64,000 nt of DNA from Escherichia phage ECO4. Under the pieces are notes generated by a model that ran no database searches, was not told the origin of the DNA, and was given only the letters and a program-made list of their open reading frames with translations. Of this stretch, positions 11,753 through 18,382 are shown one piece after another; the stretch's first letter is position 1; the number at the start of each line of letters is the position of its first letter. The stretch is taken from the sequence record NC_054911.1, one strand, 5' to 3'. A program made the position numbers and the translations under genes.

Positions 11753-11778
11753 AGGGACCTTTCGGTCCCTTTTTATTT
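11753..11778. terminator. bidirectional terminator between convergent gene 24 and rnlB
   Basis: AGGGACC-TTTC-GGTCCCT hairpin flanked by A-run upstream and T-run downstream. Confidence 0.75.
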
Positions 11779-12781
11779 AGCTCACCAACTCAATCCAAGC
11801 CGGACGAAGTACATCTTGTACCATTTTAACTAATTCCTTTTTAATCAAAGAAGGATTATCTGCTTGAGTTAGAGTAATACCTTCACGAGAAGTTTCTTCC
11901 AAAATATCTTGGACAGTTAGCCCCATCACCTTTCCAAAATCCTTTGGACCAATTTCGCCAATTTTAGAAATAACGTTATTTACTCGGTTCAGTGTAACGT
12001 AACAAGCTAAAATTCCCACCAATTTGTTATCAGCTTCTGACAATTCAACTTTAGCTTTAATAGGCTTATCAGACTTTTTCTTTTCACTAAATTTAGAATT
12101 CTTGCATTTGATGGCTACACGATTGCGATTAGGCAGCCAAGAAGGCTAACAAGGTTTCAATACATATCCTTCAGCGGTAAATACTTCGCCTTTGGCTTCG
12201 GCATTCCAAACGCATTTATTTGCATCAACTAATCCAGCATGGTCTACTGTAAAATTATAATCTTGGACGACAGAATCTAAATCATTTGGCAATTTAATAA
12301 GCTCTTCAAATTTACCGCGACCTAAAAGTGGAGCCATTTTAAATTTAAATGTATTGCAGAATGATTCCATCATATAATCATCGACATAAGTCACGTCACC
12401 ACTTTCTGTAGTGACAATAATGTCAAATACATAAAAATCTTTATCACCATAATCAACATTCTTCTGAATGCCAGGTCCAGCGAATTCGCCAAAAACTTGA
12501 TAAGTCACAACAGCTGAAGTTTCCATAATATCTTGTACTGCTTTAATGGAATCAGCGTAATTCTTTAGAATAATTTCATACCCAAAGAAATCTTCAGCAG
12601 GAAGAATCGGTCCAGTACGTTTAGCGCAAGTTACTTTATCACGCTCAATAATCAATGAGAAATTTGTGCCGTGAATCTTTTCACGAGCTACCCATTCGCC
12701 GCCAGTCAATCCCAAGCTATAAAGTTTTTCAATAAATTTAGAGTTGTAATGATTTTCAAGACTGCTATACTTTTTAAACAT
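11777..12781 (-). pseudogene. rnlB: RNA ligase 2 (rnlB) interrupted by an in-frame TAG at 12146..12148
   Basis: N-terminal 211-aa ORF (KIHG nucleotidyltransferase motif) and C-terminal 88-aa ORF are in one frame separated only by a TAG; read through gives 334 codons. Confidence 0.75.
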
Positions 12782-12790
12782 AATTAATCC

Positions 12791-13069
12791 TCAAAATGTA
12801 ATTTCTAACCAATCACCATCACGCTGATCACTATTGACTTTAAAATTAAATCCTTCTTTTCTCAGCCAATCACCAATTTCTTCAGTAATCAATTTATCAC
12901 GAGCAGTACAATAATAACTAAAATATGTTTTACCTTGTTCAGCTGCTTTATTAGCAAGTTCTGAAAAATCTTTAATAAAACACTCTAGTTTAAACTGTTT
13001 ACTTTTTAATGCTTTTTCACGTAATTGATTAGCAAAAGATTCATTTTCATAAAGATCATACTGTTCCAT
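12791..13069 (-). CDS. hypothetical protein (positional equivalent of T4 24.2)
   Basis: 92-aa ORF in tight early-gene array; no motif recognised. Confidence 0.55.
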   Translation of the reverse strand: MEQYDLYENESFANQLREKALKSKQFKLECFIKDFSELANKAAEQGKTYFSYYCTARDKLITEEIGDWLRKEGFNFKVNSDQRDGDWLEITF

Positions 13070-13271
13070 TTTTCACCTTTTTATTAATGTGTCTTTTTCT
13101 ATAGACAACTTTTTCTCGAGTCTCAAATTTATTCTTTGCAGTCATAGCTCGAGCCCATAATACAGCCACTTCTTTCGCCTGTAAGTTTAATTCACGAGCA
13201 ATTTCAATGAATGACTTTCCAGACTCATGAAGTGTAAACACCACAACTTCAGTTCTCATAATCAATCTCAT
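13056..13271 (-). CDS. small putative helix-turn-helix protein
   Basis: 71-aa ORF; segment GKSFIEIARELNLQAKEV resembles an HTH; start uncertain. Confidence 0.5.
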   Translation of the reverse strand: MRLIMRTEVVVFTLHESGKSFIEIARELNLQAKEVAVLWARAMTAKNKFETREKVVYRKRHINKKVKNGTV

Positions 13272-13327: not shown

Positions 13328-13355
13328 CAAAATGAAGAAAGGGGCCGAAGCCCCT
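13328..13355 (-). terminator. rho-independent terminator downstream of hoc
   Basis: GGGGC-CGAA-GCCCC hairpin followed by T-rich run on the minus strand. Confidence 0.65.
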
Positions 13356-13360
13356 TTCGA

Positions 13361-14779
13361 TTATGGATAAGTATAGATGATACCAGTTTCTAAAGCAGTT
13401 TTATGGATGATGTATCCATTACGTGATTCTTGAACATCAACTTCTGGATAATCTTTCATCATCTTCTGAAGCGTATAACGATGCAAGTAGTACTTACTAT
13501 CTGGATCTTCAGTTTTCCAATCTTTACCTTCTTCAGTCATTTTTTGGATTTCATCCATAACCCACCAACCGCACCAGATATAAGCTGAAGTACGATGTGG
13601 AAGAGGATGAACATAAGGCAATTCACCTTCTGGTTCCGGAGCAACTTTATCAGTTACCTGAACTTGACCTGTTGTTTTAACTGTTTTGCTATCATAGTCA
13701 GTTGCTGTAACGACAGCAGTAACTTCAATAGTTTGACTTCCAACAGATGAGGTATCAACAGTATATACGTTAGTTGACCCTTCTACAGGAGAAGAATCTT
13801 TCTTCCATGAGTAAGTAATTTGTGCTTCTTCTGGAGCATCCGTAACATTAGCAGTAAATGTAGCCGAAGCATCTTGCTGAACGTTAATAGAAGGAGGAGT
13901 CAATGTAACCTGTGGATTCATTGTCTTCTTATTAACTGTCAATGATACTTCATTAGAAGTAACTTCCTTTTCATTGTAATTTTCTGCTGTTACTTGGGCT
14001 ACGCATTTAATTCTTTTTACTCCACTTGTAGTTGGAGTATAGCTAAATGTAGAGCTAGTTTCTCCACCAACTTGTGAATCATCTACATACCACTGATACG
14101 TAGCAGATGCTCCATCAGGTTGAGAAGCTAAGGCAGCAGTAAATTGAACTGGGGTTCCAATTACTCCAGCTGAAGGACTAGCAGGAGTTACTGCCAATGT
14201 AGTTGTCTGTGTCTTTTTATTAACAGTCAGTGATACTTCATTAGAAGTAACGGTTTTTTCATCATAATTTGTCGCGGTTACTTGAGCTACACACTTGATT
14301 TTTTTAACTCCGCTTGCGGCAGGAGTGTAATTGAATGTAGCAGAAGTCGCTTCGTCTACAGGAGAACTGTCAACGTACCATTGATACGTAGCAGATGCAC
14401 CTGATGGCTGCGAAGCTAAAGCAGCGGTAAATTTAACAGCTGTTCCAATTACTCCTGCTGGAGGACTATTGGGAGTTACGGCTAAGGTAGTCGTCTGAGT
14501 TTTGTTTTTGACTGTGATAGTTGTAGTAGCTTCTGCTGTTTCAGCTTCAGATTCTGGAACTGTATTTGTTGCAACAACTTTAATAGTCTTTTGACCAGCA
14601 GGACCTTTTAATACATAATCAAAAGTTGCTTCAGACCCATCTTGTGGAGCATTATCTACACTCCAAGCATAAGTAATAGTTCCACCTCCAGTTTCACCAC
14701 TAGGTGCAGCAGTAAACTGCTTGGTTTCATCAATAACTCCTGACGGTGTTTTAGGAGTTATATCAACTGTAAAAGCCAT
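13361..14779 (-). CDS. hoc: Hoc outer capsid decoration protein, four Ig-like domains plus C-terminal capsid-binding domain
   Basis: 472 aa; conserved C-terminus (YIWCGWWVMDEIQ...); four roughly 95-aa Ig-like units, two of them near-identical. Confidence 0.9.
   Translation of the reverse strand: MAFTVDITPKTPSGVIDETKQFTAAPSGETGGGTITYAWSVDNAPQDGSEATFDYVLKGPAGQKTIKVVATNTVPESEAETAEATTTITVKNKTQTTTLAVTPNSPPAGVIGTAVKFTAALASQPSGASATYQWYVDSSPVDEATSATFNYTPAASGVKKIKCVAQVTATNYDEKTVTSNEVSLTVNKKTQTTTLAVTPASPSAGVIGTPVQFTAALASQPDGASATYQWYVDDSQVGGETSSTFSYTPTTSGVKRIKCVAQVTAENYNEKEVTSNEVSLTVNKKTMNPQVTLTPPSINVQQDASATFTANVTDAPEEAQITYSWKKDSSPVEGSTNVYTVDTSSVGSQTIEVTAVVTATDYDSKTVKTTGQVQVTDKVAPEPEGELPYVHPLPHRTSAYIWCGWWVMDEIQKMTEEGKDWKTEDPDSKYYLHRYTLQKMMKDYPEVDVQESRNGYIIHKTALETGIIYTYP
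13928..14509 (-). repeat. tandem direct repeat of about 291 bp x 2 inside hoc (approximate ends)
   Basis: Two adjacent, diverged copies encoding KKTQTTTLAVTP...YQWYVD...EVSLTVN. Confidence 0.8.
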
Positions 14780-14788
14780 AAGTTATCC

Positions 14789-15469
14789 TTATTTTAATGT
14801 TACGAAAGAAGAATTGCGTGTTTCACGAATTAAAACTGATCCGTCGCGATTAATGTAATAAATTAAGCTAAACAAAGTTTGGTGTGCTGACGCGTGTTCA
14901 AAACTAGTTGGGTGAGATTTCCAATCCGGAGTTTCAGCAATCCACTGGTAAATCCACCAAGGAACGGTACAGAATCCTGGATTTTTTCCAATCAACTGAA
15001 GATTCGGACTAAAGTTTTCCGGAAGAGTAAATACAGACGGCTTTTCAGATTCAATAATCTCAGCTACAGCCTGTTCGAATTTTTCTTCAACAAAAGGAGT
15101 ATCTTCAATTAAAACAGTAGTATTTTCAGGAATTTTATCCGTTTCTACTACTTCAATTTTAATGTCAGATTTAACCGGAGAATCAATCAGAAGTGCTGCC
15201 TCTGGATTGACTTCTTCATCGTCATATTTTAATCCGTCTGCGGCATCAGCAGCATCAATTAAGTCTTTAATAGATAACCCATCAGTCTCTGGCATAGGTT
15301 CACTAGCGAGCTTCTGGAGAGCTTCTTCAATATCATTAACGATATTATCAAAAGATTTATTCTTTTTGACCTTTATACCAAACTGTTCAGCGTATTCAGC
15401 TAATTTAGCTTTAGCTTCTTTATTATCATCAAGAGCCTTCAGCTCTGCAATATAATCTTTATCTATCAT
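14789..15469 (-). CDS. inh: Inh, inhibitor of prohead protease (hoc.1 position)
   Basis: 226 aa as in T4 Inh; adjacent to hoc. Confidence 0.7.
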   Translation of the reverse strand: MIDKDYIAELKALDDNKEAKAKLAEYAEQFGIKVKKNKSFDNIVNDIEEALQKLASEPMPETDGLSIKDLIDAADAADGLKYDDEEVNPEAALLIDSPVKSDIKIEVVETDKIPENTTVLIEDTPFVEEKFEQAVAEIIESEKPSVFTLPENFSPNLQLIGKNPGFCTVPWWIYQWIAETPDWKSHPTSFEHASAHQTLFSLIYYINRDGSVLIRETRNSSFVTLK

Positions 15470-15518: not shown

Positions 15519-16136
15519 ATGTACCACTTTGTATATGAAACAACAAATCTAATAAATGGTAAAAAGTATATAGGAAAACACTCTACTGATGACTTGAATG
15601 ATGGTTACCTTGGTTCCGGTAAGGCAATTCAGCAGGCTATAAAGAAATATGGTGAAAACAATTTCTCTAGAACAATACTAAAAGAGTTTAAAACTTCCGA
15701 AGAAGCGTACATGTATGAAGAAGAAATTATAACTCCTGAAATAATAAAAAGCAAAAATTATTATAATATGAAACCTGGTGGAATTGGTGGAATTGTTATG
15801 ACTACAGAGGTTATAGCAAAGATGAAAGAATCTTCCGCTAAGAGATTTGAAAACTCACCGGGCACGGTATTAGGTACAACTTGTTACACTAATGGAACTA
15901 AAAATATTTTTATTAAACCTGGAGAACTTGTTCCAGAAGGATTTGTAAAAGGGATGGTTCATCCTAATAGAAAGTCCAGAAAAGGATGTAAAGTCAAACC
16001 AACTACCACAGGAACTTTTTGGGTCAATAATGGTGCAATAAATAAATTAATACAACCAGACGGTATTATTCCCGACGGATTTATTAAAGGTCGTCTCATG
16101 AAAAGAGATTCTAAAGGCAAATTTAGTAAGGCATAA
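15519..16136 (+). CDS. segE: GIY-YIG homing endonuclease (SegE-like)
   Basis: 205 aa; N-terminal GIY-YIG module (KYIGKH...YLGSG); sits between inh and uvsW where T4 carries segE. Confidence 0.75.
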   Translation: MYHFVYETTNLINGKKYIGKHSTDDLNDGYLGSGKAIQQAIKKYGENNFSRTILKEFKTSEEAYMYEEEIITPEIIKSKNYYNMKPGGIGGIVMTTEVIAKMKESSAKRFENSPGTVLGTTCYTNGTKNIFIKPGELVPEGFVKGMVHPNRKSRKGCKVKPTTTGTFWVNNGAINKLIQPDGIIPDGFIKGRLMKRDSKGKFSKA

Positions 16137-18129: not shown

Positions 18130-18157
18130 GATTGTCTCCTCTGAATTATATATCTAT

Positions 18158-18382
18158 TTATACAACTCTCATATGCATATCAATGCCCATATCTTTAGAA
18201 TAAAAATATTCATCAAGATATCCGGCAAATTTTCCTTTAACATAAAGGACATCTTCACCGCATGGATGGTCGGCCAGGATACGAATATCCTGACGCTTAA
18301 GATTATGCTTTTTCATTAAGAATTGAATCTCAGTTTCAAATTCTTCTTCATAATTAAAAGCATCATCAATGTTATATCTCAT
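18158..18382 (-). CDS. hypothetical protein downstream of uvsY (uvsY.-1 position)
   Basis: 74-aa ORF abutting uvsY stop. Confidence 0.6.
   Translation of the reverse strand: MRYNIDDAFNYEEEFETEIQFLMKKHNLKRQDIRILADHPCGEDVLYVKGKFAGYLDEYFYSKDMGIDMHMRVV

Follow-up and report, generated by a model that had tools for sequence, protein, structure and literature searches.

In phage T4, every gp23 hexamer has a single Hoc bound at its centre (155 per capsid), and the protein is dispensable for assembly. Hoc serves widely in phage display and as a vaccine scaffold, and the mucus-adherence model centres on it. The T4 protein (PDB 5VF3, 8T1X and others) is 376 aa long and is encoded by a gene of 1131 bp (NC_000866). 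Hoc homologues bear 1 to 10 Ig-like domains on a conserved C-terminal anchor (Fokine et al. 2023, PMC10385173); a two-Ig Hoc has been described (PMC11853027), and the Hoc-like protein of Klebsiella phage PMBT63 is a four-Ig form of 468 aa (PMC13435897). For Hoc of phage RB30 (AAM52483.1), the GenBank record AY101183 contains feature lines for five domains together with a repeat_region note, 'intragenic repeat led to appearance of additional immunoglobulin-like domain'. A literature search for a paper on the RB30 repeat gave only this GenBank annotation and the literature on SegE and RB30 homing. The extra domain reported below is therefore already known, as the two-decade-old AY101183 annotates the duplication in RB30, and Escherichia phage ECO4 carries an ordinary allele class. 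The only two angles that are mildly new are the pattern of domain cassettes at the population level and the possibility that T4 has the derived form.

The hoc gene of ECO4 is located at 13361..14779 on the minus strand of the window, the 64,000-nt stretch of NC_054911.1 that was analysed. It comprises 472 codons and a stop codon according to the open reading frame list, phmmer and an exact protein look-up, and the list agrees with the 472-aa frame given in an earlier sequence-only reading of this DNA. The exact 472-aa protein is found in NCBI/RefSeq (ASZ77304.1 / YP_010068414.1) under the name "Hoc-like head decoration [Escherichia phage ECO4]". A phmmer search of the PDB sequences matched it to T4 Hoc (5vf3_Z, 376 aa) with an E-value of 7e-219. 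The alignment consists of two stretches, residues 1-103 with T4 1-103 and residues 189-472 with T4 93-376 (E 1e-170 for the latter), and therefore one 96-aa unit of ECO4 Hoc is without a T4 counterpart. The phmmer result confirmed that the protein is Hoc, with four Ig-like units and a conserved C-terminal domain compared with three units in T4. A reference T4 Hoc with four such units would have contradicted the earlier reading; it has three in its 376 aa. Homology of the C-terminal domain, the N-terminal string of Ig-like units and a position between inh and 24.3/24.2/rnlB all identify the protein as Hoc. The gene order inh-hoc-24.3-24.2-rnlB is common to T4 and ECO4, with inh upstream of hoc, the other three genes downstream and segE beyond inh.

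Ig-like unit 1 (U1; residues 1-92, 14504..14779, minus strand) is the orthologue of T4 Hoc domain 1, with 87% aa identity, and carries E29 and G33 within the sequence SGETGGG at residues 27-33. Ig-like unit 2 (U2; residues 93-188, 14216..14503, minus strand) is the unit left unmatched in T4 and is the repeat copy of type A. It shares 79% aa identity with T4 domain 2, and its nucleotide sequence is 100% identical to that of phage G28 and ~90% identical to the lone middle unit of the three-Ig phage CM8. Ig-like unit 3 (U3; residues 189-284, 13928..14215, minus strand), the copy of type B, is nearest to T4 domain 2 (92% aa and 92% nt identity). Ig-like unit 4 (U4; residues 285-380, 13640..13927, minus strand) is the orthologue of T4 Hoc domain 3, to which it is 88.5% identical in aa sequence. 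Pfam assigned a PKD match to residues 197-267 of U3 with 39.7 bits (cut-off 23.5) and an Ig_3 match to residues 289-355 of U4; the Ig_3 and I-set matches were weaker than the PKD match. The capsid-binding domain at the C-terminus (residues 381-472, 13364..13639, minus strand) is homologous to T4 Hoc 281-376, with 90 of its 92 residues the same as in T4 and a dN of 0.009. It aligns to the C-terminal domain of T4 Hoc resolved by cryo-EM (PMC10385173). With U2 left out, ECO4 Hoc is 91.2% identical to T4 Hoc.

Tandem Repeats Finder detected a single tandem array at 13922-14497 with a period of 288 and 2.0 copies (77% matches, score 684), and a repeat search resolved 13922-14209 and 14210-14497 as two copies of 288 nt that are 76% identical. 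These searches bear out the tandem duplication that the sequence-only reading proposed as the source of the extra unit; the reading frame shows that it is in frame and involves the second Ig-like domain. The two adjacent repeats that it described are real and tandem; their period is 288 bp (96 codons) rather than 291, and its boundaries were 3-6 bp off. Its description of units 2 and 3 as near-identical did not hold: U2 and U3, which are in-frame copies, share 81.2% aa and 75.3% nt identity and differ at 71 of the 288 nucleotide positions, with 14, 12 and 45 differences at the three codon positions, respectively. The longest in-register identical run between them is 21 nt. The peptide motifs that it quoted as shared are conserved but merely represent the unit ends and centre. 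The remaining unit pairs within ECO4 Hoc are 27-41% identical.

U2 and U3 of ECO4 gave a pS of 0.63, a dS of ~1.35, a dN of 0.13 and an omega of ~0.1, and the two RB30 units compared with each other gave a dS of 1.13 and a dN of 0.13. When the same repeat unit was compared between phages, dS was 0.19-0.25 and dN 0.06-0.07; for the other hoc domains among Tequatroviruses the values were 0.2-0.45 and 0.00-0.11, and for D1 between Tequatrovirus and Mosigvirus RB69 they were 0.9-1.1 and 0.31-0.34. Judged by these values, the duplication is several-fold older than the sampled hoc allelic diversity, with an age of the order of a genus-level split. U2 and U3 are nearly saturated at synonymous sites and both are under strong purifying selection, which indicates that each of the two domains has a function in the protein. 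Among 37 multi-unit Hoc representatives, no unit pair exceeded 85% aa identity within one protein, and the comparison gave no sign of a recent duplication of units.

A megablast search with the whole hoc gene matched 685 phage records. The full 1419 bp aligned in one piece in many of them, including PP01, Sf23, PhiZZ30 and G28, and other records aligned in two pieces spanning 1131 bp, which corresponds to the T4-like form. U2 as a blastn query matched 615 phage records at 888 places; in 60 evenly spaced rows of the ranking, it was present once per record in 38, twice in 19 and three times in 3. About one third of the Tequatrovirus records encode a four-Ig Hoc and ~5% a five-Ig Hoc (568 aa), the remainder being of the T4-like three-Ig form. 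The comparison of Hoc length across relatives that the sequence-only reading had proposed yielded three length classes: in the best 120 clusters of proteins at 90% identity, 80 representatives were 376 aa long, 29 were 472 aa and 8 were 568/570 aa. The 90% cluster of ECO4 Hoc has 167 members, RB30 Hoc among them. RB30 Hoc is also 472 aa long with the D1 / A / B / D3 / C-terminal layout of ECO4, and the two proteins are 91.3% identical, their 41 residue differences falling mostly in D1 and the variable loops. The length of 472 aa, the in-frame 288-bp tandem repeat and the order A then B place ECO4 hoc with the RB30-type four-Ig allele.

Middle units cluster into types A, B and C plus hybrids. 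Type A has the core SPV.EATSATFN, usually with VKKIKC; type B has the core SQVGGETNSTFS (SQVGGET) with VKRIKC; and type C has the core SLVDGETTTT. We typed the architectures of the 120 representatives and ECO4 Hoc. Single middle units were A in 46 proteins, B in 27 (T4 among them), C in 3 and hybrid in 3. Double units were A-B in 22 (ECO4 among them), A-C in 3, A-hybrid in 2, and B-C, A-A and A-RB69-like in one each. Triple units were A-B-C in 4, A-B-hybrid in 2 and A-hybrid-C in 1. The orders B-A, C-A and C-B were absent from the 120 representatives and ECO4, and the constant order of A before B before C has few independent events behind it. A search for strictly diagnostic A/B residues left just protein positions 48, 51 and 52, and therefore the distinction between types relies mainly on the central loop and on the DNA.

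Painting with 43 nucleotide sites at which both ECO4 and RB30 have a fixed A/B difference resolved the single middle unit of T4 as AAAA / 31 B / AAAAA / B.B. By block identity, the T4 unit matches the RB30 A unit at 100% over its first 48 nt and the ECO4 B unit at 98-100% thereafter. The units of CM8 and YUEEL01 are likewise patchworks of types by painting and block identities. This mosaicism shows that sequence has repeatedly passed from unit to unit by homologous recombination or gene conversion. The unit ends are strongly conserved (KTQTTTLAVTP... and ...VTSNEVSLTVNK). These conserved ends would supply the homology for unequal crossing-over, by which whole domains could be gained or lost in frame during mixed infections. 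From these comparisons, the middle units of hoc form a copy-number polymorphism of one, two or three (376, 472 and 568 aa). We are confident that ECO4 carries the common four-Ig Tequatrovirus allele, in which an ancient A-B duplication yielded two functional domains belonging to a mosaic copy-number polymorphism with recombination among its units.

The five-Ig Tequatrovirus Hoc (568 aa; e.g., YUEEL01 and UGKSEcP1) shares the flanking domains and the 288-bp unit family of ECO4. Of its middle units, the first two match A and B (or something B-like) and the third is of type C (SLVDGETTTT); this form makes up ~5% of records. Outside the genus, Mosigvirus RB69 Hoc (471 aa) also has four Ig-like units and is collinear with ECO4 Hoc over its full length at 59% identity, with a C-terminal domain nearly identical to that of ECO4. 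RB69 unit 2 is ~54% identical to both A and B, and therefore A and B are mutual closest relatives that split after the RB69 unit did. RB69 unit 3 shares ~40% identity with any Tequatrovirus middle unit and 41% with RB69 unit 2, and therefore the four-Ig state of RB69 derives from a different, older event. Between the C-terminal part of RB69 hoc and 13364-13639, dS is 0.26, a level found within Tequatrovirus, and D1 gives ~1.0. This low value suggests either inter-genus exchange of the 3' part of hoc or unusual synonymous constraint.

The 472-aa Hoc of P0040 contains a type-A unit followed by a second unit that resembles RB69 unit 2 and is 56% identical to its neighbour, an apparent inter-genus chimera of domain cassettes. 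PMBT63 Hoc has duplicated its last Ig unit (u3/u4 79% identical), of which KPV15 has one copy. A common origin of the fourth Ig of PMBT63 with that of ECO4 was rejected, as PMBT63 independently duplicated a different unit. On the unit comparisons, Ig units in Hoc have therefore been duplicated on at least three independent occasions.

A recent tandem duplication, or an expansion of one unit during assembly or sequencing, would be the simplest source of a second copy, as short reads can mis-assemble tandem repeats and the earlier reading had noticed long peptide motifs common to both units. The possibility of a recent, perhaps artefactual expansion special to ECO4 fails on two grounds, for the bases differ at a quarter of positions and the architecture occurs in ~200 phage records. 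With 71 differences in 288 positions, a longest identical run of 21 nt and a dS of ~1.35, the duplication is therefore ancient rather than an assembly expansion. Moreover, the same diverged units are found in the same order in those ~200 independently sequenced records, the stand-alone RB30 hoc gene record (AY101183) has both units, and the exact ECO4 protein is in RefSeq. Sequence divergence and independent occurrence in hundreds of records led us to reject this explanation, which we regard as scarcely conceivable. That the extra domain was imported as a cassette from a different genus (RB69, with its four-Ig Hoc, being one possible donor) appears very improbable as well. The similar length and collinearity of RB69 Hoc would fit such an import, as would the RB69-like second middle unit of the Tequatrovirus-like P0040, and the oddly close C-terminal domain of RB69 (dS 0.26) indicates that inter-genus exchange happens. 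However, ECO4 U2 resembles U3 far more (81% identity) than it does RB69 unit 2 (54%) or RB69 unit 3 (40%). A common origin with the RB69 four-Ig Hoc was also rejected, the extra unit of RB69 being orthologous to neither U2 nor U3.

The direction of change between three and four Ig domains is less certain. T4 Hoc differs from ECO4 Hoc in having one middle unit, a mosaic of A and B tracts, in place of two, and therefore T4 may have lost a unit rather than ECO4 gained one, and taking T4 as the ancestor is unwarranted. We lean slightly towards a secondary reduction in T4: a unit can be lost by nothing more than a homologous crossover between conserved unit ends, the types always follow the same order, and T4 holds tracts of both A and B. 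Against it, a single middle unit prevails in the outgroup genera (three Ig units are found in Gaprivervirus UPEC07 and Jiaodavirus KPV15, in line with a three-Ig ancestor), and the T4 mosaic has at least three switches, whereas a simple deletion would leave a single A-to-B switch. A clean A5'/B3' crossover scar in T4 as proof of deletion was accordingly rejected after the site-by-site painting. The A-B gene might instead have been joined from diverged A-only and B-only three-Ig alleles by illegitimate or unequal recombination, with the three-Ig form ancestral in Tequatrovirus. Three-Ig genes with A alone (46 representatives, e.g., CM8) or B alone (27, including T4) do exist, the A-B divergence is far above that of the flanking domains, the outgroups again mostly have a single middle unit, and T-even phages recombine freely, with homing of the neighbouring segE co-converting flanks. 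We nevertheless consider such a joining unlikely, because it needs recombination at the D1/unit and unit/D3 junctions, which have little homology, because the order is constant in multi-unit genes (B-A, C-A and C-B being absent), and because single-unit genes, that of T4 too, bear tracts of both types. Returning to a reduced T4, we tentatively propose a wider scheme, about which we are more doubtful than about the reduction itself: the Ig number would be a recombination-driven polymorphism derived from an old A-B-C array, T4 would be a reduced mosaic, the different lengths would be kept by the environment, and segE would move the alleles. If this were true, fibre lengths of ~18, 22 and 27 nm would be kept to suit different mucus or host-surface environments.

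An AlphaFold2 model built with 34 homologues showed four confident all-beta domains over residues 1-380 (pLDDT ~90), with U1 modelled as a beta domain at pLDDT 85-93; the C-terminal alpha/beta domain was poorly modelled (pLDDT 40-65). The top Foldseek matches in the PDB were four-Ig fragments of Sidekick, Dscam1 and ICAM-5 with a probability of 1.0, and their TM-scores were low, as differing inter-domain angles would lead one to expect. Since the C-terminal domain has 90 of 92 residues in common with T4, ECO4 Hoc is predicted to dock at the gp23 hexamer centre, like T4 Hoc in its cryo-EM structures (PMC10385173). The T4 Hoc fibre is given as ~180 Å for four domains (PMC10385173). Scaled from that figure, the ECO4 fibre would likely be ~220-225 Å long, reaching ~4-4.5 nm (one Ig domain) beyond the ~18 nm of T4.

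E29 and G33 in domain 1 were reported to be critical for MUC2/fucose binding in relatives (PMC11150434), and S183-L184-T185 at the end of domain 2 was reported as a MUC2 fucose site in relatives (PMC11853027). All of these residues are present in ECO4 Hoc; residue 29 is Q in T4 Hoc and E in ECO4 Hoc. Because domain 2 is duplicated, there are two SLT motifs (183-185 and 279-281), and the ECO4 fibre would present the domain-2 surface twice, with the S-L-T motif each time. A longer reach and one more putative glycan-binding surface would be the most probable consequences of the extra unit, and they might plausibly alter the reach or avidity with which the phage adheres to mucus or cell surfaces. 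T4 should be treated with caution as one allele of a protein whose domain number is 3-5 within the genus and 1-10 across the family. Isogenic alleles of 376, 472 and 568 aa would offer a natural series for the effects of fibre length and glycan-binding domains on adherence, aggregation and immunogenicity.

Read from the sequence, an SD-like AAGGA at 14786..14790 on the minus strand is positioned 6 nt before the hoc ATG and overlaps the inh stop codon. A terminator scan found a strong hairpin resembling an intrinsic terminator at 13337..13358 on the minus strand, 3 nt past the hoc stop, which consists of GAAAGGGGC-TTCG-GCCCCTTTC followed by a T run and has 9 pairs, 6 of them G-C. The T4 late-promoter consensus TATAAATA is absent from the minus strand near hoc and inh, the nearest copy being at 18155-18162. 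In the whole 64 kb the consensus was observed 19 times versus 9.1 expected, and no shuffle reached 19; the excess fits a late-gene region. ARAGORN found no tRNA genes and Rfam no families at the gathering threshold in the whole 64 kb.

The segE gene at 15519..16136 on the plus strand encodes a GIY-YIG homing endonuclease of 205 aa; the 161 residues that were compared with T4 SegE are 98% identical. As in T4, segE separates inh from the next gene; it lies ~740 bp upstream of hoc. SegE homing was found to co-convert flanking markers in T4 x RB30 crosses (PMC2330249). Homing of segE may likewise co-convert hoc alleles and so help to spread them, which makes it a plausible route for their spread. 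RB30 is reported to be without segE beside inh (PMC2330249), whereas ECO4 has it there. The presence of segE and the hoc architecture are unlinked, as T4 has segE with a three-Ig Hoc, ECO4 has segE with a four-Ig Hoc, and RB30 combines the reported absence of segE with a four-Ig Hoc. In CM8 and YUEEL01, the uvsW helicase gene is directly beside inh, so relatives differ in whether they have segE.

The rnlB gene (11777..12781, minus strand), a homologue of T4 RNA ligase 2, is collinear with the 334-codon T4 gene. Its codon 212 is an in-frame TAG at ~12146-12148 (LKPC*PSW), where relatives have Tyr (TAT), and this TAG is the sole difference from RB51 rnlB over 201 nt. A total of 677 records match rnlB, 17 of them at >=99%, and none is 100% identical among the best matches listed. 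By comparison with these, the TAG resembles either a private amber/nonsense allele or an error of sequencing. The counterpart of gene 24.3 downstream of hoc is a 71-aa open reading frame at 13056..13271 on the minus strand. T4 gp24.3 has 56 aa (171 bp) and the DUF2774 protein of CM8 has 67 aa (204 bp), and therefore this small gene beside hoc is also variable in length among relatives.
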